A stretch of 64,000 nt of DNA, taken from positions 1,322 through 65,321 of IMG/VR virus record IMGVR_UViG_3300006033_000027, one strand, 5' to 3'. The DNA comes from a virus. Its lineage: Duplodnaviria > Caudoviricetes. Each line of letters starts with the position of its first letter. Positions within the stretch are counted from its first letter, which is position 1. Positions 1-62,885 of the stretch are shown piece by piece. Below the pieces are notes generated by a model. The model ran no database searches. It saw only the letters and a program-made list of their open reading frames with translations, and was not told the DNA's origin. The position numbers were made by a program, and so were the translations under genes.

Positions 1-843
1 GTCGAACGCCCATTGGCCGAGTACACGGGCGATGAACCGCGGGTCCTCTTCCCCGTACTCTTCGATCTTGCCTTCGATGTACTCCATGTCCACCAGGCCC
101 GGCACGAGATCCACGGGGAAGTCCGGGTCGATGTCGGGATTCACCTTCGGGCTGTCGTAGCACGAGATGTGCATGAAGTTCCAGGTGGCAGGATTCTTCT
201 TGAAGAGCTTCCCGAGGTGGCTGGAGGGGTCCGTGGGGTTGCAGATCAGCAATCGGCGGTTGAACTGGGATGAGGTGATGTTTCCCAGACCGTCGATGAA
301 GGCTTCAGTCAGCCCCGTAGCCTCATCACCGATGGCAAGCATGTAATCGGCGTGGAAACCCTGAATCGCATCGTCACCCTTGGCGTCCGGGGGCTTACGC
401 CCCTGTCCGATCAGTGTGCCGTCGTCCAGCTTCCACTTGTCGTCACCCAGGATCTTGCCCGGGAGCGGGTGGTCGATCAGACCCTTATCGTACCGCTGCT
501 GAGAGACAGTGTGCCACCGCTTGATTTCACGCCAGATAACACCGGAGACCTGATCCTTGGTCGGCGCCGTGGTGAAGACGAACACGCGATCCAGGGGGTG
601 CGTATCGACCCACCACAGGGTCGCAATGGCCGTTACGAAGGACTTTCCGACACCGTGCCCGGCTGCCACGGCGGTGTTGCGGTTGAAGATCACCGATTCG
701 ATGATTTCGACCTGTCGCTTCCAGAGATTCACCCCGAGCATGTACTGAGCCCAGGCACGGATATCCGTCTTGAAAGCGTCCGCTTGCTCCCGCTGTTCCA
801 GCGTTGTCAGCGCATACGCCGCGATATTCCCGTAGTCAGCCAT
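1..843 (-). CDS. terL: Terminase large subunit (N-terminal ATPase part; runs off window start)
   Basis: Manual translation from ATG 843: MADYGNIAAY...NTAVAAGHGVGKS (Walker A)...FTTAPTKDQV...GFHADYMLAIGDEA (Walker B). Confidence 0.9.
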   Translation of the reverse strand, partial: MADYGNIAAYALTTLEQREQADAFKTDIRAWAQYMLGVNLWKRQVEIIESVIFNRNTAVAAGHGVGKSFVTAIATLWWVDTHPLDRVFVFTTAPTKDQVSGVIWREIKRWHTVSQQRYDKGLIDHPLPGKILGDDKWKLDDGTLIGQGRKPPDAKGDDAIQGFHADYMLAIGDEATGLTEAFIDGLGNITSSQFNRRLLICNPTDPSSHLGKLFKKNPATWNFMHISCYDSPKVNPDIDPDFPVDLVPGLVDMEYIEGKIEEYGEEDPRFIARVLGQWAFD

Positions 844-2782: not shown

Positions 2783-2881
2783 AATGACCTCAGCCTAACA
2801 CATTACGGCCCCAATACCGCATTTTCGGGCTCTAGAGGGCCTGTTTTCGGCTAGTTTCCGCGGAAAACGCCCATTTTGGGC

Positions 2882-2961
2882 AAAAGAAGTCCCCCGGGAG
2901 GCCAAGAAAGGAGAAAAGAAGCCGAGCCCGGGGGACAATTCACAACAGAAAGGAGATAATC
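2882..2961 (-). ncRNA. Putative small RNA with two anti-SD motifs (UCUCCUUUCU)
   Basis: Extended -10 TGCTAGACT at 2968-2976; terminator GTCCCCCGGG/CCCGGGGGAC followed by TTCTTTT; no ORF. Confidence 0.55.
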
Positions 2962-2980
2962 GCTAGTAGTCTAGCACATC

Positions 2981-2998
2981 TGAGCCGTATACGGGACT
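2981..2998 (-). pseudogene. tRNA 3' remnant (half T-arm plus acceptor strand)
   Basis: AGT CCCGT ATACGGC T CA starting at the HNH stop codon. Confidence 0.4.
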
Positions 2999-3431
2999 AC
3001 CACGACGCTCTAAAGTGTCCGCCGCGGGTCTGGGTGATAATTGCGTGGCAATTCCGACACCGGACATCACATTTAGCTACTTCCGCCAGAACCGAGTCCC
3101 ATTTCCAGGCAGAGATCGCCCGAGAGATGTCTATAACCTTGATCTCGTCGGGTCTGTGGTCAAATTCCAACACTCGGATGTCTGTGGTCCCACAGTCCAC
3201 ACAAGGATGCTCCGCCAGATAGTCCCGAAGGGCTTCAATGTTTCGAGTCTTCTCGTCTCGGCTCCGAGAGGTATTTTCCGCGATCAGGCGATCACGATTT
3301 TGCAGATAGTGTTCTCTCCGGTAAACCTTCATACAAGACCGACATTTACTTCCCACTCCGTCAGGCTTGTCCCTATTCTTGTTGAAATCTGAAAGGGGTT
3401 TAGTCTCTCCGCAAGTAGTACAAAGCTTCAT
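2997..3431 (-). CDS. HNH endonuclease (tRNA-cluster associated)
   Basis: CxxC zinc motifs; CVDCG..VLEFDH..KCDVRCRNCH; leaderless ATG 7 nt after TGCTAATGT. Confidence 0.88.
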   Translation of the reverse strand: MKLCTTCGETKPLSDFNKNRDKPDGVGSKCRSCMKVYRREHYLQNRDRLIAENTSRSRDEKTRNIEALRDYLAEHPCVDCGTTDIRVLEFDHRPDEIKVIDISRAISAWKWDSVLAEVAKCDVRCRNCHAIITQTRGGHFRASW

Positions 3432-3619: not shown

Positions 3620-3787
3620 GAAAACAGTCTATCAGAGAAGAAACCCGGTCGCAACCACGCTGTTGCTCCGGAAAAAGTGCCTCGACCGGGCTGGTAGGCC
3701 CCGCGAGGACTTTAGGCATCAAGCGCCTGGGTCCAGACCACTCGATCTCTCCCCGCCGCTACCACGCACGAGGATTTGCCATGCCCA

Positions 3788-5691: not shown

Positions 5692-5772
5692 GCCGCTGGA
5701 GGGGGGCGTCTCTACCCGTAGGGGCGTCTCACCCTAGTTACCTACTAGGACACAACGAAAGGAATAACAATC

Positions 5773-5943
5773 ATGGGTAAGTCACCTACCGCTAAGGCAA
5801 TCGCCCGGGAGCGCCGTGAGGCCGAACGGGAGCGCACTACCGCCCGCAAGCGAGGCCGCGCCGATAAGCGGGCCGAATCTTCCGCGTTCGGCGGCGGCGA
5901 CCGCTGGCACGGTTCGGAGATCCGCACCGGGGGCGCACGATGA
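5773..5943 (+). CDS. Small basic hypothetical protein (MGKSPTAK...)
   Basis: GAAAGGA SD; ATGA overlap with next gene; absent from ORF track. Confidence 0.65.
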   Translation: MGKSPTAKAIARERREAERERTTARKRGRADKRAESSAFGGGDRWHGSEIRTGGAR

Positions 5944-7221: not shown

Positions 7222-7327
7222 CCCTGCCCGATCTCGCCCCGCTATGCGCCCCGTAGCGGGGCGTTTCGGCGTGCGCCGGTACCCAAGTACCCACGCGGGA
7301 CAAAAACCCCTCAGAACGGCACCTAGC

Positions 7328-7888
7328 CTATTCTCTCGGCGCGTGAGTCTGACAGTATCCCAAATACTCTGTCGGGCTACTCCAGTACGTCACCGGGCTA
7401 TCGCCGCACTCCATACACGCCGCGTTTCGTTTCAGCCACTCCAGCACCAGCGCCCGATGTTCCCGTGTCAGATAGTCCACGGCCCGCTCATAACTCCGAA
7501 ACGATATCGCCGTCTCAGATTGGCGGCGCTTGCGGGGGAGCACGAGATCCGCCCACCTACCGTCATATCGGAATTCGTCATAGTGCGGCCTACAGAGCCC
7601 ACGGACCAAATTTATATCGACCGGGCACCAGGGCACCCGACATTCCGGCTTGCCATCCTCAGAGACCGCGTTATCCCAAACGGCCTTTTGAGATCTCTCG
7701 ACTATCGAATCCAGTTTCGAGTAATCCGTTTCACTCACTCGCCCATTCCGCCGTCTAACCTTACTCGGCCAAATGATGTTTCGATACTCGCCCGTTCTCC
7801 GATTCCGCTGGAAGTGTGTTCCGCAGAGCCCACGGGAATGTTGCTCATTCCGACACTCAGGCACGATGCACTTAGCTATCTCACTCAT
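7328..7888 (-). CDS. Protein with repeated CxxxxC..RGLC..H zinc-finger motifs
   Basis: CIVPEC..RGLCGTH and CRVPWC..RGLCRPH; leaderless TGCTAGACT promoter upstream. Confidence 0.7.
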   Translation of the reverse strand: MSEIAKCIVPECRNEQHSRGLCGTHFQRNRRTGEYRNIIWPSKVRRRNGRVSETDYSKLDSIVERSQKAVWDNAVSEDGKPECRVPWCPVDINLVRGLCRPHYDEFRYDGRWADLVLPRKRRQSETAISFRSYERAVDYLTREHRALVLEWLKRNAACMECGDSPVTYWSSPTEYLGYCQTHAPRE

Positions 7889-8300
7889 GCCCGGCAGTCT
7901 AGCACGCTAAACGGAATCCAAACGGATTCCAACAACTTTTTTACATTCTGGACGGCCCGAATCTGTCACAACTGGATGGTTTATACCGTAAGTGGGAGAA
8001 ACGAACGGGGGGGTCTCCCCCTGTCTCTCAGAAGCCCAAATTATGGGTTTGTACCAGTATTCTCTAGGGAAACAAGGATACTACAACAATTATACATACA
8101 CACTAATTATATAGACCTATAAAGAGACCCCCCTCTAAATTCCTCCCAAACCCCGGTATAATCCCCCGCTCGGACACGTTTTCGCAAAGTAATTCTGAGA
8201 ATTCCCTGAATTTAGTAAGGGCACCCTAAGAAATCCCACCTCCCAAAATCCATGCGTTCGTCACGACTTCCGGGAGTGACAACCACGGAAATCTCTCTCC

Positions 8301-15298: not shown

Positions 15299-15967
15299 TT
15301 GACTACTGCAACCCTGCCGATCCTGAAGGCCGTAGACCGAGCAATCGCTGCGGTACGGGAGCGTCACCCTGAGATCCCGGAGATCGTCGCGGTCGTCGGT
15401 CAGTCCGGCTTCAAGAAGAACGGCCAGACCCACGGCCACTTCGCCAAAGAGACCTGGCGCCGGGACGAGGATGGCAACGAGGTCACAATGCACGAGATCA
15501 TGCTCTCAGGCGAGTCCCTGAAGCGTGGCGCCGAAGCCACCCTGGGAACCATCATCCACGAGTGCGTCCATGCCTACTGTCACGTCAAGGAAATCCGGGA
15601 CACCTCCAATCAGGGCCGCTACCACAACAAGCACTTCAAGGAAGCCGCCGAGGACTTCGGGCTCTCGATCTCGAAGGCTCCGGTCATCGGGTTCAGCGTC
15701 ACCACCCTGGCGGATGGAACCGCGGAGGAATACGCCGAGGAACTGGCGGATCTCACCGAGGCTCTGACCGCCTGGCGCGTGCCGAAGCTGAAAGAGGTCG
15801 TCAAGGCGACCAAATACGAGATGCAGTGTCGTGACTGCCAGGACCCAGTGATGACCAGCAAGAAGTGGTGGGAGCGCAACCGCAGCAACCTGTTCTGCGA
15901 TTCCGACCGGCATGAGGGCTTCCGTGAGGAAATGGTCCTGCTGGCTGACGGAGAGGAAGTCTACTGA
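15299..15967 (+). CDS. SprT-like zinc metalloprotease
   Basis: HECVH..YHNKHFK; C-terminal CxxC. Confidence 0.8.
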   Translation: MTTATLPILKAVDRAIAAVRERHPEIPEIVAVVGQSGFKKNGQTHGHFAKETWRRDEDGNEVTMHEIMLSGESLKRGAEATLGTIIHECVHAYCHVKEIRDTSNQGRYHNKHFKEAAEDFGLSISKAPVIGFSVTTLADGTAEEYAEELADLTEALTAWRVPKLKEVVKATKYEMQCRDCQDPVMTSKKWWERNRSNLFCDSDRHEGFREEMVLLADGEEVY

Positions 15968-19010: not shown

Positions 19011-19061
19011 CAAATTTTTTCGCAAAAACGACTTGACAAACGGTTTCGTTTCAAATAGAGT
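19011..19061 (+). promoter_or_regulatory. Strong SigA-type promoter for the Y RNA-Ro60 operon
   Basis: TTGACA (19033) -17 nt- TAGAGT; AT-rich UP element. Confidence 0.8.
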
Positions 19062-19088
19062 GTTCATCACCGAAGCAACTACATAAAA

Positions 19089-19166
19089 ATTTTCAGCCGG
19101 AGTGATCGGGTTATCAATCACACTGTAACTGCGACAAAACACCCGGCCACGCAACTTGCTGAAAAT
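19089..19166 (+). ncRNA. Y RNA-like unit 1
   Basis: Closing stem ATTTTCAGC/GCTGAAAAT; GCCGGAG..CGGGTTATC and CAACTTGC; inner hairpin TCACA CTGTAAC TGCGA. Confidence 0.75.
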
Positions 19167-19183
19167 CACAACTACATAATGAC

Positions 19184-19313
19184 TTCGAAAGCCGGATTGA
19201 TCCGGTTATCTCTTGAAAAGAAGTGGTTCTGGGTTCGAATCCCAGTCGGCTCATTGAGTCGGTAGCTCAACGGAAGAGCACTAAACGGTCGGGTCTCCCA
19301 ACTTGCTTTCGAA
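19184..19313 (+). ncRNA. yrlA: YrlA-like Y RNA (circularly permuted tRNA-like domain)
   Basis: Stem TTCGAAAGC/GCTTTCGAA; T-arm CTGGG TTCGAAT CCCAG, closed acceptor stem TCGGCTC-ATT-GAGTCGG, D-arm GCTC AACGGAA GAGC. Confidence 0.88.
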
Positions 19314-19318
19314 AAATC

Positions 19319-19434
19319 GTGGTGGCCGACGAGGTTCGGTTATCGGTAATAGATGGTTCAACTCCACCCGTCCCCGCATGGGGACTGATCCCACCCTCAG
19401 CGGTGGGCTTCCGGATTTCACACCTTGCCACTAC
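19319..19434 (+). ncRNA. Y RNA-like unit 3 (degenerate YrlA fold)
   Basis: Stem GTGGTGGC/GCCACTAC; GCCGA..CGGTTATC; T-loop TGG TTCAACT CCA; hairpins GTCCCC/GGGGAC and CCCACC/GGTGGG. Confidence 0.75.
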
Positions 19435-19440
19435 AAATTC

Positions 19441-19501
19441 TTGCGGTCGGAGTCGTCGGGTTATCTTTGGTAAATGTCCCGGTGCCACCTACTTACCGCA
19501 A
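19441..19501 (+). ncRNA. Minimal Y RNA-like unit 4
   Basis: Stem TTGCGGT/ACCGCAA; GTCGGAG..CGGGTTATC and CCCG..CTACTTAC. Confidence 0.7.
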
Positions 19502-19531
19502 ATCACACAGAAAGAAGGAGGTTCAGCAACA

Positions 19532-21106
19532 ATGACTGCCAGTGTTCTCCAGGGTATCCGCCCGAATGAAACCGTCCAGACCGAGCAGGCCCGGGAAGAT
19601 CAGGTCAAGAACAACGCCGGGGGTTTCGTCTTCGAGATCAGCCCTCTCCAGCGGTTCCGCCGCTTCCTCATTCTCGGCACTGAGGCTTCGACTTACTACC
19701 AGTCGGCCCCGGCTCTCTCGCGTGAGAACGCTCAGAACCTCTTCGCCCTGCTCGGATCGGACCACCGCGGCGTGGTCAATGAGATCCTGGAGGTCTCCAC
19801 CAACGGACTCGCTCCCCGGCAGGAGCCCACGCTCTTTGCGTATGCGGCTGCCGTCAGTCCGGAATTCGGCTCGGTCGAGGACCGCACCTACGCGCTGTCC
19901 CTCTTCAACCAGATCGTGCGGACGGGTACCCACCTGTTCACCTTCCTGGGCTTCGTGGAGCAGTTCCGAGGCTGGGGTACGGCTCTGCGCCGTGCCGTTG
20001 CGGACTGGTATCTCTCGAAGGAGCCGGACAAGCTCGCCTATCAGGTGGTCAAGTACAAGCAGCGCGAGGGTTGGTCCCATCGGGATGCCCTGCGTCTGTC
20101 CCACCCGAAGGCGGACAACTGGGACACCAACGACATCTTCGGCTACATCACCCAGAACGGTGAGACCAGCAACAGTCTGATCGAGGCTGCCCGGGGCGTC
20201 CATGACGGTTCGGTGTCGATCTCCGCGGGCATCGAGGCTGGCCTTCCGTGGGAGGCTCTGCCGTCTGAGGCACTGACCGAAGCGAAGACCTGGGAGGCCC
20301 TGCTGGAGCACAACTCCGTGCCCCTTGGCGCCCTGGTCCGACAACTTGGCCGACTGACCAACCTGGATCTGCTGAAGCCGTTCGCGGACACCAAGAGCAC
20401 GATCCTGGGGCTGCTGCGTGACGAGCGCAACATCCTGAAGTCGCGCATCCACCCGTTCAACCTGCTCAACGCCTGGTACACCTACCGGAGTGGCCGTGGC
20501 TTCCGAGGCAATGCCTCCTGGAACCCGGACGGTGACGTGGTGGCGGCTCTGGAGGCTGCGTTCTACACCTCCTTCCCGAACGTCAAGCCCGCGGGGAAGA
20601 ACACCCTCGTGGCTCTGGACGTGTCCGGCTCGATGGGTTGGGATACGATCAACAACTCGGCCCTGACCCCGCGTGAAGCGTCGGCAGCAATGGCCCTGGT
20701 TACAGTGAAGACGGAGCCGAACACGCATGTGGTTGCGTTCTCGACCTCACTTACTCCGTTGCCCATCGCGTCTGCATCCACCCTGGATGAGACACTGCGG
20801 ATCGTGGACAGCGTTCGAATGGGTGGCACCGATGTCTCCCTGCCGATCCTGTACGCACAGGAGCGTGGTCTCCAGGTGGATACCTTCATCAGCTACACGG
20901 ACAACGAGACGTGGAGCGGTCGGATTCACCCCTACCAGGCCCTCACGCAGTACCGGAAGTCTTCGGGTCGCTTTGCGAAGAACGTGGTGGTCGGAATGAC
21001 TGCCACTGGATTCTCCGTGGCGGACCCCCGAGACCCGGGCTCGCTCGATGTGGTCGGCTTCGATTCGTCGGCGCCCTCGGTGATCTCTGAGTTCTCTCGG
21101 GGTTGA
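19532..21106 (+). CDS. rsr: Ro60/Rsr TROVE-vWA RNA-binding protein
   Basis: QVKNNAGGFVF..RFLILGTE..YY; KYKQREGWSHRDALRLSH; RIHP; MIDAS DVSGSM; TDNETW; VVGFD. Start after AAGGAGG SD. Confidence 0.95.
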   Translation: MTASVLQGIRPNETVQTEQAREDQVKNNAGGFVFEISPLQRFRRFLILGTEASTYYQSAPALSRENAQNLFALLGSDHRGVVNEILEVSTNGLAPRQEPTLFAYAAAVSPEFGSVEDRTYALSLFNQIVRTGTHLFTFLGFVEQFRGWGTALRRAVADWYLSKEPDKLAYQVVKYKQREGWSHRDALRLSHPKADNWDTNDIFGYITQNGETSNSLIEAARGVHDGSVSISAGIEAGLPWEALPSEALTEAKTWEALLEHNSVPLGALVRQLGRLTNLDLLKPFADTKSTILGLLRDERNILKSRIHPFNLLNAWYTYRSGRGFRGNASWNPDGDVVAALEAAFYTSFPNVKPAGKNTLVALDVSGSMGWDTINNSALTPREASAAMALVTVKTEPNTHVVAFSTSLTPLPIASASTLDETLRIVDSVRMGGTDVSLPILYAQERGLQVDTFISYTDNETWSGRIHPYQALTQYRKSSGRFAKNVVVGMTATGFSVADPRDPGSLDVVGFDSSAPSVISEFSRG

Positions 21107-21140
21107 CATAGCTCGGTCACCCCGATAGACTCGGGGGACA

Positions 21141-21413
21141 ATGACCGCGACAGACAACTTCATAGAGGCAGCCCGGACACAGCGACCAAAGTGCCGGAGT
21201 CCCATTGCGAACTTCATCCCGAAGCATAGTCCCTGGGTGGACTACGAACAGGATGAAGCTCCGAGCACCCGAGACGCCGAACTGCTGTGCGAGGGCTGCC
21301 CCCTGAAGGATCTCTGCTACGAGATGGCTGTCGAAAACGGAGAGGAACACGGAATCTGGGGCGGGGTTCGATTCGACCCCAAGCCACGCAAGAGAAGGAG
21401 GAAGAATGGCTAG
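21141..21413 (+). CDS. whiB: WhiB-family transcription factor
   Basis: C..CEGCPLKDLC..GIWGG plus basic tail. Confidence 0.9.
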   Translation: MTATDNFIEAARTQRPKCRSPIANFIPKHSPWVDYEQDEAPSTRDAELLCEGCPLKDLCYEMAVENGEEHGIWGGVRFDPKPRKRRRKNG

Positions 21414-21618
21414 TCAACTACCGTTCAGAAACCCGGATGTGATGCGGGTTCGAGACCACATCTACGACGAGGTTTCCGGGATCATCGCTGATTACGGAAT
21501 AGACGAGCCCCCGCTGAATCTGATCGCTTACGCAGTGACCGACCAGCTTCTCTACCGTGACTTCATCCACACCGAGAGTGTTGTGCAGTATCTCGATGCC
21601 CTGGAGAAGAATTCGTGA
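21406..21618 (+). CDS. Hypothetical protein
   Basis: AGGAGG SD. Confidence 0.65.
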   Translation: MASQLPFRNPDVMRVRDHIYDEVSGIIADYGIDEPPLNLIAYAVTDQLLYRDFIHTESVVQYLDALEKNS

Positions 21619-21791
21619 GCGACGAACTGATCCAAGAGCTTCGTCGTCAGATCGACCAGCTTGATGACGACAACTCCGAACTTCAGAACGAGAACCATCG
21701 TCTCCGGGATCGTATCGAAGAGTTGGAACAGCAGGTTGTTCAACTGACTGATGCGATGGATGACATCAATCGGTTCACGAGGCAGTTCTGA
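21615..21791 (+). CDS. Small coiled-coil protein
   Basis: MSDELIQELRRQIDQL..; overlaps both neighbours. Confidence 0.6.
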   Translation: MSDELIQELRRQIDQLDDDNSELQNENHRLRDRIEELEQQVVQLTDAMDDINRFTRQF

Positions 21792-22708
21792 TGGCTGAAC
21801 GTAAGCTCATCCTCACCCGAGGCATCCCTGGCAGTGGCAAGACCACCTGGGCCAAGCAGCAGCCCCACCCCCGGGCGAACCGGGATGACCTGCGCTGGCA
21901 GTTGTTCGGTCACCGCCCCACTGACGGACTGCTGAACGGGGAACAAGAGTCGGCTGTCACCCGGGCTCAGCGGGATCTCGTCAAGGCGTTCCTGCGTCAC
22001 CATGACACGGTGATCGTAGACGACACCAACCTGAACAACCGCTTCATGGGTCAGTGGTATCGCTTCGCTGAACTGAACGGTCTCACCGTCGAGTTCAAGG
22101 ACTTCGAGGTTCCCCTGGAGACGGCTCTGGACTGGGACCGCAACCGGGAATACCCCGTGGGTGAAGCGGTGATCCGGAAGTTCTACGGTCGTACTAAGGA
22201 CGGCAAGCTCCCCGCTCCACCGACCCGCAAGCACGTCCGTGCAGACCTCGGTGCCGTGACCTTCGAGCAGTACGTCCCGGGAGAATCCCTCCCGTGGGCC
22301 TGGGGGTTCGATCTCGACGGCACCCTGGCGCACATCCAGGGTGAGAACCCGCGCAGTCCCTACGACGGTGCTCGTGCGGGAGAGGATGCTGTTGATCCCA
22401 TCGTTCGAGACATTGCTCTCTCGTTCCAGCGGAACTACTACAAGATCCTGATTGTCTCTGGTCGTAATGAAGACTATCGCCACGTCACTGAAGAGTGGCT
22501 GGAGCGCATGGGGATTCACTACCACGATCTGTTCATGCGAGCTTCCGGTGATGACCGTTCCGACAACATCGTGAAGTACGAGATCCTGCGGGATCAGATC
22601 GCACCGAAGTATGCCCTGAGGGGCATGGTGGACGACCGAGATCAAGTAGTTGCCATGTGGCGCCAGGTTGGTGTAAAGTGCCTCCAGGCCGAGTACGGCG
22701 ATTTCTAA
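21791..22708 (+). CDS. pseT: Polynucleotide kinase / 3'-phosphatase (T4 PseT-like)
   Basis: GIPGSGKT..RDDLR..DDTN kinase; FDLDGT..SGR..DDR HAD domain. Confidence 0.92.
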   Translation: MAERKLILTRGIPGSGKTTWAKQQPHPRANRDDLRWQLFGHRPTDGLLNGEQESAVTRAQRDLVKAFLRHHDTVIVDDTNLNNRFMGQWYRFAELNGLTVEFKDFEVPLETALDWDRNREYPVGEAVIRKFYGRTKDGKLPAPPTRKHVRADLGAVTFEQYVPGESLPWAWGFDLDGTLAHIQGENPRSPYDGARAGEDAVDPIVRDIALSFQRNYYKILIVSGRNEDYRHVTEEWLERMGIHYHDLFMRASGDDRSDNIVKYEILRDQIAPKYALRGMVDDRDQVVAMWRQVGVKCLQAEYGDF

Positions 22709-22723
22709 CAGAAAGGGGTAACA

Positions 22724-24022
22724 ATGAGTATCAAGCTTGAAGAACCGGAGAACAAGAACTACGCCGCTCAGGTGGTGACCATCCATGAGGTACATCCGCT
22801 GGATGGAATGGACCGCGTGCAGGGAGCATCCGTACTGGGCCTCCAGGCCATCGTCGGACTTGAAGTGAAGCCGGGTGACCGGGGTATCGTCTTCGGCCCC
22901 GAGACGCAGCTTTCCCAGGACTACACCTACTTCAACAACCTCCACCGACACGGGGACCGGAACGTTGACCAGTCCGTGCAGGGCTATCTCGAAGATAACC
23001 GCCGAGTCCGTGCGATCAAGCTCCGCGGCCACCGCTCCGACGCGCTGTTCATGCCGCTGGAATCCCTGGACTGGGCCACCCTGGACTACGATCTGCTGCC
23101 GGACGGAGCCTACTTCGACAAGATCGGAGACCACCCGATCTGCAACAAGTACGTCGTCCGGCAGCCGAAGGCTCACGACCGGGCTCAGGCCAAGCACGAC
23201 CGTGCCTTCCGCCGCGTGGACAAGATCTACCTGCCGGAGCATGTCGAGACCGACAACTACTTCTACTACGGCCACGTCATCCCGGACTTCGCGGATGTCG
23301 TCGTGACTCAGAAGCTCCACGGGACCAGCGTTCGACTCGCCAACACAGTGGTCAAGCGCAAGCTGACCTGGTTGGAGAAGCTGGCGAAGAAGGTCGGCAT
23401 CAAGGTCGCGGAGACCGAGTTCGACTTCGTGGCGGGCAGCCGGAAGGTCATCAAGGACCCCAACAACCCGTACCAGAATGACTTCTACGGTACCGACATC
23501 TGGACTGAGGCGCTGGGCACGTACAGCTACGCCATCCCGGAGAACTTCATCGTCTACGGGGAACTGGTCGGCTGGGTTGATCCCGGCAAGCCGATCCAGA
23601 AGAATTACACCTACGAGCAGGTGGACGACTACGAACTGTACGTCTACCGTGTCACTGTGGTCACGCACAGCGGTCGTCAGGTGGATCTCTCTTGGGATGC
23701 CGTGCGGCGATTCACCGACGAGAACGGTCTGAAGCATGTGCCGGAACTGTGGCGCGGTCGCAAGGAGTTCTTCGATCCCGAGAAGTGGCTGGACATTCGG
23801 TTCCTGGACACCAACGTGACCCACCGGGACTATCCGGTGCGACTGTCCAACAAGGACACCGTTGACGAGGGCGTGGCGATCCGCTACGATGGTGCGGGTA
23901 TGCCGCAGTTCTTCAAGGCGAAGTCCCCGATCTTCCTGGCCCATGAGACCAAGCTTCTCGACCGGGGTGAAGTGGACACCGAGACCCAAGGCAATGAACA
24001 ACCCGAAGAAATTCTGGTCTGA
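22724..24022 (+). CDS. ATP-dependent RNA ligase (Rnl2/DRB0094-like, N-terminal OB-like domain)
   Basis: KLHGTS motif I, YGEL, EGVAIR, FKAKS; LRGHRS in N-domain. Confidence 0.85.
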   Translation: MSIKLEEPENKNYAAQVVTIHEVHPLDGMDRVQGASVLGLQAIVGLEVKPGDRGIVFGPETQLSQDYTYFNNLHRHGDRNVDQSVQGYLEDNRRVRAIKLRGHRSDALFMPLESLDWATLDYDLLPDGAYFDKIGDHPICNKYVVRQPKAHDRAQAKHDRAFRRVDKIYLPEHVETDNYFYYGHVIPDFADVVVTQKLHGTSVRLANTVVKRKLTWLEKLAKKVGIKVAETEFDFVAGSRKVIKDPNNPYQNDFYGTDIWTEALGTYSYAIPENFIVYGELVGWVDPGKPIQKNYTYEQVDDYELYVYRVTVVTHSGRQVDLSWDAVRRFTDENGLKHVPELWRGRKEFFDPEKWLDIRFLDTNVTHRDYPVRLSNKDTVDEGVAIRYDGAGMPQFFKAKSPIFLAHETKLLDRGEVDTETQGNEQPEEILV

Positions 24023-24954: not shown

Positions 24955-25482
24955 TTGACTCAACCGGCTCTGGCCGATCCTGAAGTTCAGGCTGAGATCC
25001 AGAAGAAGCGGGCTTCGCGGAAGGTCATCTGGAGACCGATCCAGACTTTTCCGAAATATGAGGTCAGTAATACGGGTCTTGTTCGGTCAGGTGTGTCAGG
25101 TCATATTCTGAGTCCACACCTAGTCAATGGCTATAAGCGTGTAACCCTCTATCTCGGGGGTAAGAAGAAGCATTTCTTGGTTCATCGTTTGGTCGCTCAG
25201 GAATTTATAGGCCGGGAAGATTCAACCCATACAGTAGTCCGGCACTTAGATGGGAACGTAGCCAATAACCACGCCAGTAATCTATCCTGGGGAACCCAGA
25301 GCGATAACGTTTTGGACGCGGTGAAGCACGGAACTCACCGCTCGTCATCCAAGACCACTTGCTCTCGGGGTCATTCTCTTTCGGGGAAGAACTTGCAAGT
25401 GGTGTCCGGAGCAAGACGTTGCCGTGAATGCGCGAACCGCCGTAACCGTGAGTATCGTGAACACAGAAAGGGTACAGAATGA
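24955..25482 (+). CDS. NUMOD4-HNH endonuclease fused to the old N-terminus of the exonuclease
   Basis: WRPI..YEVSNTGLVR; VHRLVA..RHLDGN..NN..NL; first 24 aa nearly identical to next gene. Confidence 0.9.
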   Translation: MTQPALADPEVQAEIQKKRASRKVIWRPIQTFPKYEVSNTGLVRSGVSGHILSPHLVNGYKRVTLYLGGKKKHFLVHRLVAQEFIGREDSTHTVVRHLDGNVANNHASNLSWGTQSDNVLDAVKHGTHRSSSKTTCSRGHSLSGKNLQVVSGARRCRECANRRNREYREHRKGTE

Positions 25483-53982: not shown

Positions 53983-54030
53983 AGGATACCATGAAGGGCG
54001 AATCCTAGCGTTACGGAACCTCTATGTCAA
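53983..54030 (-). promoter_or_regulatory. Late promoter element, copy 1
   Basis: TTGACA -17 nt- TAGGATTCGCCCTTCATGGTATCCT. Confidence 0.7.
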
Positions 54031-56703: not shown

Positions 56704-57130
56704 TTGTGTCCGCGTAAGACCAACCACCACGCTCATAGGTCTGGATCGCGTGGCAATTCCGACACCGCACGTCGCATTTATCTATCTCTGATCGAAGACG
56801 ATGATAGCCCGCCGATTGCCGAGCGAGGGCCATTACCCCATCTACCTTATCAGAACCCTCTCGGTGGTCGAACTCTAGAACACGGACATCTGTATTGCCG
56901 CAATCGACGCACCCCGTCTTCAAGAACCCCCGGCAGAACTCGATCTTTTGTTGCCGCTGACGCCGATTGTTTTTCCGCAATGACTCTTTACGTCGGGTGT
57001 TTACGGTGTAGTTCTTTTTGTTCCAGCGAGAGACACAAGACTTGCATCTCCGATGGCGAACTCCGGCTTTCTTATCCCTGAAACTGAAGTTCTCACTCAC
57101 CTGCTCCAAACCACATTCACTACAAATCAT
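56681..57130 (-). CDS. HNH endonuclease (tRNA associated)
   Basis: CVDCG..VLEFDH..KCDVRCRNCH; paralog of 2997-3431; leaderless TGATAGTAT promoter. Confidence 0.88.
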   Translation of the reverse strand: MICSECGLEQVSENFSFRDKKAGVRHRRCKSCVSRWNKKNYTVNTRRKESLRKNNRRQRQQKIEFCRGFLKTGCVDCGNTDVRVLEFDHREGSDKVDGVMALARQSAGYHRLRSEIDKCDVRCRNCHAIQTYERGGWSYADTSPSNSTG

Positions 57131-60589: not shown

Positions 60590-60637
60590 AGGATACCACG
60601 AAGGGCGAATCTTAGTGTTTCACTATCTCCGTGTCAA
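60590..60637 (-). promoter_or_regulatory. Late promoter element, copy 2
   Basis: TTGACA -18 nt- TAAGATTCGCCCTTCGTGGTATCCT. Confidence 0.7.
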
Positions 60638-62216: not shown

Positions 62217-62347
62217 GATAGCAGTTTACCAGGCAAATTGGAAGAGCCCCCGCCACCGATTTTGTCAGGTAACGAGGGCTCTCTTATCGGGGGTCATCTA
62301 TCCCGAGGGAGGCTTATCATCCTGGATCAAGTTTACCAGTAGACAGC

Positions 62348-62520
62348 AAGAACCCCCGGCGTGGAGGCACATGAGTCCTGCCGGGGGTTCTTATCCCAAG
62401 TGAATAGGGAAGGTGCTGGCCTCGAAGGGGTCAAATCCATCCAGCATGTGCAGCTATTTCTCCCCGGCCCCTATAGAGCCTGGAAGCGGGTTGGTTACCG
62501 CCCGGGTTAGCCCCTACCGC
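62348..62520 (-). ncRNA. Putative small RNA between holin and portal
   Basis: TGATAGACT promoter at 62529-62537; terminator AAGAACCCCCGGC/GCCGGGGGTTCTT. Confidence 0.45.
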
Positions 62521-62534
62521 TGAGAAGCAGTCTA

Positions 62535-62885
62535 TCAGCCCTGCTCGGATGTGTCAACCGGCCCGATGCCCTCGTGGAGAGAAATGTCCTCACCCTCCGT
62601 CAGGATGTCATCCTCCAGGTCGGGGTCAAAGGTGTCTTCTTCCGCCGCCTTGCCGGTGCTGATGTTGGCAATCGCCAGGGTACCCATCGGTCCTGCCAGG
62701 AATCCGATAGCGCCGCCCAAGCCCACCAGCCACAGAGCCGGAGCCTGCTGGGTAGCCCCCAGGTAGGCGATCACGGTTCCGTAGGCGAGTCCGAGAATCG
62801 CGTAGACAGCCCACACGATCTTGCGAGCCCCGTTGTTGGTGATGATCGCACCGAGATCGGTGCTTGAAGTTTGGTCCTTAGCCAT
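62535..62885 (-). CDS. Holin
   Basis: ARKIVWAVY.. two TM segments and acidic tail. Confidence 0.75.
   Translation of the reverse strand: MAKDQTSSTDLGAIITNNGARKIVWAVYAILGLAYGTVIAYLGATQQAPALWLVGLGGAIGFLAGPMGTLAIANISTGKAAEEDTFDPDLEDDILTEGEDISLHEGIGPVDTSEQG

Follow-up and report, generated by a model that had tools for sequence, protein, structure and literature searches.

A phage locus with two anti-Shine-Dalgarno-like motifs that may encode a small regulatory RNA

A short stretch on the minus strand of a freshwater phage genome (2976-2881) carries two copies of the motif UCUCCUUUCU, a near copy of the end of 16S rRNA, between an extended -10 promoter motif and a terminator hairpin, and both copies are predicted to be unpaired. 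The stretch is plausibly a discrete non-coding promoter-to-terminator unit, which would give an RNA of ~75-80 nt. The explanation that we prefer, at a probability of about 0.4, is that it encodes a small RNA acting in trans, whose two redundant anti-SD-like motifs would occlude Shine-Dalgarno (SD) sites. If real, the RNA would be a regulator encoded by the phage, with what is essentially the mRNA-docking sequence of the ribosome as its seed, set in a genome that starts many genes, and even tRNAs, directly at the promoter, and it would offer the virus a simple route to favour leaderless over SD-led translation. If the element is only a terminator with a pyrimidine-rich loop, it is ordinary, and the unusual transcription layout and the RNA-repair gene set of the phage remain.

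Phage genome and gene layout

The record IMGVR_UViG_3300006033_000027, from freshwater metagenomes, comprises 65,321 bases and is estimated to be 73% complete. The window, i.e. the whole stretch of 64,000 nt analysed here and used for numbering, corresponds to bases 1322-65321 of this record. Relatives of the portal protein are found in 76 phage records, all of them distant (<=38% identity), belonging mostly to phages of Microbacterium (32), Arthrobacter (18), Streptomyces (7) and Clavibacter (5). Since most of these are actinobacterial phages, the host is likely an actinobacterium.

A plus-strand gene block (~5155-40383) encodes a helicase, Ro60, polynucleotide kinase-phosphatase, RtcB, an exonuclease, a primase and DNA polymerase. 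The minus strand carries the genes between 4803 and 1 and those between 64000 and 40472, among them a phosphoesterase, tRNAs, HNH, the large terminase, the portal, a protease/capsid gene, the tape measure and tail genes; the tRNA genes in the window number 11. The candidate small RNA is encoded on the same strand as the genes for the terminase, portal and tail, with the terminase gene ~2 kb downstream of it. The genes referred to below are:

1-843, minus strand: large terminase gene, leaderless, with its ATG 9 nt after TGATAGAAT; continues past the window start
2782-2417, minus strand: ORFan gene downstream of the element, with its own promoter 9 nt before the ATG
2997-3431, minus strand: HNH endonuclease gene upstream of the element (phrog_2255, E = 1.6e-36), leaderless behind TGCTAATGT (3447-3439)
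7328-7888, minus strand: second HNH endonuclease gene, alone on the minus strand within the plus-strand block, leaderless behind TGCTAGACT

The second HNH gene overlaps a plus-strand ORF (7244-8122).

The phage also carries an RNA-repair gene set on the plus strand (19532-24022), consisting of Ro60 (at 19532, with TROVE and vWA domains), three small ORFs, polynucleotide kinase-phosphatase (21791-22708) and RtcB ligase (22724-24022). Upstream of it (19033-19531, plus strand), ~470 nt of non-coding sequence separate a TTGACA-N17-TAGAGT promoter from the SD-led ATG of Ro60 (19532), and this region contains four repeats of GCCGGAnTGATCGGGTTATC together with tRNA-like arm sequences. Sub-threshold Rfam matches fall here to YrlA (19189-19311, 36.3 bits, E = 2.5e-6, gathering score 69) and to the nematode sRNA family ceN72-3_ceN74-2 (19088-19166 and 19440-19503, ~30 bits). 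From its sequence, the region appears to comprise up to four clustered Y-RNA-like genes adjoining the phage Ro60. A Y RNA was considered for the element as well because the phage encodes Ro60, and was rejected: no model matches the element, and the YrlA-like matches lie at 19088-19503 beside Ro60 instead.

Structure of the element

The first-pass annotation had described a minus-strand promoter and a U-tailed terminator bounding ~80 nt, and every sequence that it quoted was found where it had placed it: the promoter TGCTAGACT at 2976-2968, and the hairpin with its U-tract at 2936-2881. The parts of the element and its downstream boundary are:

2968-2976, minus strand: extended -10 promoter TGCTAGACT (TGn + TAGACT), read from the sequence and presumed active
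2958-2961, minus strand: predicted transcription start, 7-10 nt after the -10 element, from motif spacing elsewhere in the phage
2947-2961, minus strand: 5' seed GAUUAUCUCCUUUCU, predicted to be single-stranded (mean unpaired probability 0.85), with motif 1 UCUCCUUUCU at 2956-2947
2889-2936, minus strand: terminator hairpin with a 10-bp stem, an internal loop and a 4-bp helix (GGCU/GGCC)
2904-2919, minus strand: 16-nt all-pyrimidine apical loop UCUUUUCUCCUUUCUU closed by the 4-bp helix, predicted to be unpaired, with motif 2 at 2914-2905
2881-2888, minus strand: U-rich tail UUCUUUUG directly after the stem
2792-2800, minus strand: next promoter TGTTAGGCT, ~80 nt beyond the terminator and 9 nt before the ORFan ATG

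The non-coding stretch after TGCTAGACT begins GAUUAUCUCCUUUCUGUUGUGAAUUG, and from 2960 the minus strand reads AUUAUCUCCUUUCUGUUGUG. The stem is formed by GTCCCCCGGG (GUCCCCCGGG, 2936-2927) paired with CCCGGGGGAC (2898-2889), with G-C pairs at 9 of its 10 positions. The hairpin at 2936-2881 thus has the G+C-rich stem and following U-tract of an intrinsic terminator, and its stem encloses 28 nt, compared with the loops of 3-8 nt that a standard terminator scan accepts.

The sole ORF in the unit (2938-2795) crosses the terminator. A small protein was rejected as the product for this reason, the ORF having 47 codons, and a 6-codon ORF started by AUU is implausible. A functional ribosome binding site on the plus strand was also rejected, as neither SD-like copy has a start codon after it.

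Promoter usage in the phage

The general form of the extended -10 element, TGnTAnnnT, occurs 61 times in the window, with 20 of the 61 copies in intergenic sequence (which makes up 9.1% of the total; p = 2e-7), and 8 of the 15 copies of TAGACT are likewise intergenic (p = 1.6e-5). At least 11 ATG starts have TGnTAnnnT 6-9 nt upstream, including those of the terminase, the portal, both HNH genes, the ORFan and several tail-region genes. The same 9-mer as in the element, TGCTAGACT, recurs at 7896-7904, 7 nt before the ATG (7888) of the second HNH gene. Two further copies on the minus strand (3626-3634 and 1024-1032) lie upstream of tRNA-Met and tRNA-His, with 6-7 nt between the end of the motif and the tRNA 5' end, and these tRNA clusters may be transcribed with little or no 5' leader. 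Positions so close before ATG starts and tRNAs suggest that the phage routinely starts RNAs, non-coding ones included, a few bases after the motif; by the same spacing, transcription of the element would start at ~2958-2961 and yield an RNA of ~75-80 nt. The element's TGCTAGACT has the TGn + TAnnnT form and is placed like the other promoters of the phage. Its form is that of the consensus, and its activity is credible from the phage's own usage.

A double-promoter module of the form TTGACA-N17-TA[AG]GAT-tcgcccttc[ag]-TGGTATCCT, is repeated on the minus strand at 60590-60637 and 53983-54030, each time before a structural-region gene.

Promoter, leader, terminator and gene, in this order, are also the classical arrangement of an attenuator. 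In such a cis-acting leader, the hairpin would stop some of the transcripts from TGCTAGACT while others continued into the ORFan operon (2782 onward), and a factor that controls termination would bind the CU tracts. We consider this very improbable, because the 5' segment is not complementary to the stem and no alternative antiterminator pairing is found, and because the downstream gene is preceded by a leaderless promoter of its own, 9 nt from the ATG. A ToxI-like repeat RNA and a riboswitch were rejected likewise, with no model match and no alternative fold.

Motif copies and predicted fold

The motif had been reported twice in the element, once single-stranded and once in the terminator loop, and we find it so: UCUCCUUUCU lies at 2956-2947 and 2914-2905, with predicted mean unpaired probabilities in the 80-nt RNA of 0.85 for motif 1 and 1.0 for motif 2. 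The fold predicted for 2870-2985 has an energy of -40.4 kcal/mol (z = -3.6), a stability reached by none of 200 shuffled sequences.

Throughout the whole 65,321-base record, TCTCCTTTCT is present in exactly two copies, both in the element. The 9-mer CTCCTTTCT is confined to the element within the window, and two or more copies anywhere arise in 7 of 100 shuffles. Two same-strand copies of the 9-mer at a distance of 9-60 nt appear in none of 1000 first-order Markov sequences of the window (expected pairs, 1.2e-4). The two motif copies are 42 nt apart and their flanking sequences are unrelated, which argues that they are neither a copied 42-nt unit nor a recent tandem duplication.

The main rival explanation is that the element is a plain terminator or 3' UTR of the HNH cassette, or of a tRNA-HNH unit, in which TGCTAGACT is a silent or weak promoter arisen by chance and the pyrimidine-rich repeats have no function; were the internal promoter silent, the HNH mRNA would carry the element as its 3' UTR. 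The HNH stop codon is 60 nt upstream of the hairpin, the HNH gene (2997-3431) has an atypical GC3 (0.55, compared with 0.7-0.8 in most genes) as a mobile insertion would have, and such an insertion may carry its own terminator. Modules in which a terminator is followed by a promoter are common in this phage (e.g. 58055-58012), as expected from this explanation, and terminator-like hairpins with large loops occur elsewhere in it, at 62353-62387 (17-19 nt) and 56724-56756 (15 nt); these hairpins weigh against the small-RNA reading. Against the rival stand two identical 10-mers that match the anti-SD, are unique in 65 kb and are both unpaired, a combination very unlikely by chance (0/1000), and a promoter with a perfect consensus -10 element, of a kind whose intergenic copies are mostly found directly before a gene or tRNA. 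On balance, we regard the plain terminator as an unlikely but serious contender.

Another promoter-to-terminator unit, of ~175 nt, is located on the minus strand between a small gene and the portal gene (62345-62557). It extends from TTGACA-N17-TAGACT to a hairpin made up of CCCCCGGC, a 19-nt loop with GCCUCCAC, and GCCGGGGG, followed by UUCUUGCU, and may encode an 18-codon ORF or a small RNA.

Likeness to the 16S rRNA 3' tail

The first-pass annotation had given ...CCUCCUUUCU as the end of actinobacterial 16S rRNA. The tail itself is as it had stated, but the restriction to Actinobacteria does not hold, as Table 1 of PMC6288834 prints the mature 3' tail as GAUCACCUCCUUUCU(A) in several phyla (Listeria, Streptococcus, Neisseria, Deinococcus), and this table includes no actinobacterium. 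Over its first 15 nt (GAUUAUCUCCUUUCU), the predicted RNA is identical to the tail GAUCACCUCCUUUCU of that table at 13 of 15 positions, where the host's own tail may differ (PMC6288834). Both differences are C to U. The loop copy (motif 2) shares the last 9 positions of the tail and has the same U as copy 1 at the first C of CCUCC.

Since the motif is an anti-SD look-alike, its complementarity to ribosome binding sites is automatic. The motif has UCUCC where 16S rRNA has CCUCC, and the commonest SD of this phage is AAGGAGG; with U for C, the motif would be a weaker partner than the ribosome for AAGGAGG and other GGAGG-type SDs. It pairs best with AGAAAGG-type sites, which are seen only on the plus strand.

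The same likeness would suit a protein decoy, an RNA that mimics the 16S 3' tail and soaks up a factor able to recognise or cut the anti-SD tail, e.g. a host toxin or defence ribonuclease, a 3'-end maturation nuclease or ribosomal protein S1, with no pairing to mRNA. The 13/15 identity spans the full tail and includes GAU.A upstream of the core, and the phage invests heavily in RNA damage control, with Ro60 and Y-RNA-like genes, polynucleotide kinase-phosphatase, RtcB and 11 tRNAs. Among mycobacterial MazF toxins, some cleave inside the anti-SD. For MazF of E. coli, PMC7781912 describes cleavage of the 16S 3' end. However, the extra positions match only at 4 of 6, which is weak alone, the core departs from the real tail at a C important for CCUCC recognition, and this explanation names no candidate binding protein. 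A decoy of this kind appears decidedly improbable to us.

Candidate targets

Three ribosome binding sites had been quoted as complementary to the motif (22708, 25463 and 5751). All three are present, and pairing to each is predicted:

22707-22718, plus strand: ribosome binding site of the RtcB RNA ligase, AACAGAAAGGGG (with ACAGAAAGG at 22708), candidate target, predicted duplex -21.0 kcal/mol
25463-25472, plus strand: ribosome binding site of the exonuclease, ACAGAAAGGG (with ACAGAAAGG at 25463), candidate target, predicted duplex -15.0 kcal/mol
5751-5767, plus strand: CACAACGAAAGGAATAA before ORF 5773-5943, candidate target, predicted duplex -18.3 kcal/mol

The RtcB site and the 5' seed would be joined by 12 uninterrupted pairs, one of them G-U, and the site at 5751-5767 would form 6 + 7 pairs around a one-base bulge. 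The exact 9-mer ACAGAAAGG has three copies, all on the plus strand, namely the complement of the element and the RtcB and exonuclease ribosome binding sites. By prediction, then, the element is a non-coding unit with accessible sequence complementary to SD regions.

Predicted duplexes with initiation regions range from -15 to -24 kcal/mol. They were computed segment by segment; whole-RNA duplexes were dropped as meaningless, because they open the terminator stem and long duplexes result. When the flanks are shuffled around an unchanged core, 6 of 200 variants attain the mean observed for the ten best duplexes (-19.9 kcal/mol), and 8 of 200 attain the observed number of sites at <=-17 kcal/mol (15). 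These shuffles lend modest support (about p = 0.03-0.04) to predicted pairing that extends beyond the SD core. The sequence ACAACG is found 10-35 nt before four plus-strand gene starts (0.88 expected), and for the starts at 15299 and 33690 its position coincides with the transcript start expected from a TTGAC-N17-TAGACT promoter, so that the seed would be antisense to the whole short leader. At Ro60, the CACACAG before the SD is part of the repeated Y-RNA-like unit, which weakens the apparent match there.

Likeness to plus-strand leaders can also be explained by descent. The element may derive from a 5' UTR with its ribosome binding site on the plus strand, copied in inverted orientation and since decayed into a functionless scar of recombination, with CACAACAGAAAGGAG resembling the ACAACGA...AAGGAGG leaders. 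Read on the plus strand, it is like the real leaders at 5751, 15274, 16335 and 33663, and the lack of a start codon after either copy fits a decayed remnant. But the neighbouring genes, from 4803 down to 1, are all on the minus strand, and a scar would not be expected to place two SD-like copies precisely where a promoter-terminator unit is unpaired. Moreover, antisense regulators are thought to arise from such copies, so that this origin is compatible with a function. We give the functionless scar a very small chance.

The mechanism that we propose for the trans-acting small RNA, from its transcription and ends to pairing in vivo and the effect on translation, is inferred from how the element is built and is predicted to fold, and from where the promoter motif is used across the genome. 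The phage would possess a small non-coding RNA gene with its own host-type extended -10 promoter and an intrinsic terminator, producing ~75-80 nt; the HNH mRNA would contain this sequence too, as its 3' UTR. The RNA would expose UCUCCUUUCU at its 5' end and in the terminator loop, and either copy could pair with the purine-rich SD region (AGAAAGGAG-like) of an mRNA, keeping off the 30S subunit and lowering translation. The likeliest targets would be SD-led plus-strand genes with an extended match, i.e. RtcB, the exonuclease, ORF 5773 and the transcripts beginning ACAACGA...AAGGAGG, and host mRNAs with long SDs would be further possible targets. Messages that start directly at AUG would offer no such site.

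Leaderless and Shine-Dalgarno-led genes

A leaderless signature (a -10 element ending 5-10 nt before the start codon) is present in 12 of 36 minus-strand genes compared with 5 of 66 plus-strand genes (p = 0.0016). Strong predicted duplexes between SD and 16S tail (<=-10 kcal/mol) show the reverse distribution, with 35/67 on the plus strand and 7/35 on the minus strand (p = 0.0027); only this count of strong SDs was used, since the segment energies given above and the energies with the 15-nt 16S tail come from different lengths and are not like for like. The same host-type promoters are present on both strands, and neither its strand nor its promoter type marks the candidate RNA as late. An SD of at least 5 nt is kept in 13/36 minus-strand genes, mostly internal genes of structural operons.

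The first-pass annotation had proposed that the RNA silences SD-led early or host mRNAs while leaderless late transcripts escape. The enrichment of leaderless genes on the structural strand (12/36 compared with 5/66) agrees with this proposal, but a global switch does not follow from it, since the 13/36 genes there that are SD-led would have no escape from a global anti-SD RNA. The global switch is possible and is not required by the data. In its fullest form, free anti-SD made in bulk from replicated genomes would coat the long SDs of host and plus-strand phage messages, and ribosomes would pass to the many leaderless messages (terminase, portal, tail and other minus-strand genes), a switch of translation mode during infection effected by RNA only, which we think improbable. 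A bolder variant of this free anti-SD reading would associate the RNA with the module of RtcB, kinase-phosphatase and Ro60, where it would substitute for a damaged 16S 3' tail or serve as its decoy.

Search for relatives

Searches of 50,697 phage records with the element region (megablast and blastn) found no relative, and at E up to 10 they gave only five 24-nt chance matches, in enterobacterial phages. Larger collections were scanned for exact patterns only. The two-motif pattern has at least 125 matches in IMG/VR, most of them in low-GC phages, and none among the matches listed has the hairpin and flanks of the element; in metagenome contigs, it has at least 162 matches, and those listed are mostly CT-rich or coding repeats with a best local alignment score of 24. 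A motif-stem-motif pattern has one match in 185,579 species genomes, a CT microsatellite. Protein-led searches found no close relative of the phage in IMG/VR (with the ORFan, HNH, phosphoesterase, portal and DNA polymerase) or in genomes (with RtcB), and two distant related loci (L120 and L119, the latter with its whole record) hold no similar element. A search of 5.8 billion proteins of near length found no homologue of the ORFan (2782-2417).

No Rfam family matches the element at the gathering score or at E up to 10, apart from a lone irrelevant lncRNA model (13 bits), and the 6C RNA and other Rfam families were rejected as identities because no covariance model matches. Three public sequencing runs, all of them freshwater DNA, contain the stretch or, in two of the three, small identical pieces of it, and no RNA run is listed. 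The contigs of these three DNA runs show no variation over the element.

Comparison with known systems

The closest likeness in layout is to LhrC of Listeria, in which, as established experimentally, the SD region is bound by redundant CU-rich sites, located both in the terminator loop and in a single-stranded stretch (PMC4132741). The LhrC1-5 RNAs of Listeria monocytogenes resemble the element in repeating a CU-rich motif in these two places, in pairing with the SD and in blocking initiation, the last two being predicted for the element (PMC4132741). The motif of the element, UCUCCUUUCU, is a copy of the 16S tail, whereas those given for LhrC in that text are CUCCC/UCCC (PMC4132741), and the element has two sites and one hairpin where LhrC is described with three sites and two hairpins. 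Membership of the LhrC family was rejected, since the element has no Rfam match (E up to 10), no UCCC and a single hairpin. It resembles LhrC in design and is not a homologue: it is virus-encoded, is known here from its sequence alone, and has no sequence or Rfam relationship to that family.

The actinobacterial 6C RNA is host-encoded and has C-rich exposed loops. Among Gram-positive small RNAs, RNAIII, RsaE, SprD and FsrA are listed with UCCC motifs in PMC4132741. These four and 6C RNA are like the element in having exposed pyrimidine-rich loops aimed at SD sequences. They differ in being host-encoded and in relying on C-runs, whereas the element has a full copy of the anti-SD tail and no Rfam match.

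Among the papers listed in our literature search, we found no phage small RNA with an anti-SD seed. The c4 RNA of P1/P7 and the sar RNA of P22 are short phage antisense RNAs that block translation by covering a ribosome binding site, c4 with two separate pairing segments. Each acts on one nearby operon through long specific complementarity, whereas the element would recognise a generic SD core in candidate targets 3-23 kb away.

The phage T4 protein RegB is an endoribonuclease that inactivates early mRNAs by cleavage at the SD (GGAG). It is the nearest functional parallel to the model of the first-pass annotation, with the difference that RegB is a protein that cleaves and the element would be an RNA that occludes. 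In the 'stress ribosome' model of E. coli MazF, which is disputed, loss of SD/anti-SD pairing was proposed to favour leaderless mRNAs (PMC7781912). There the action is on the ribosome, whereas the proposed action of the element would be on the mRNAs.
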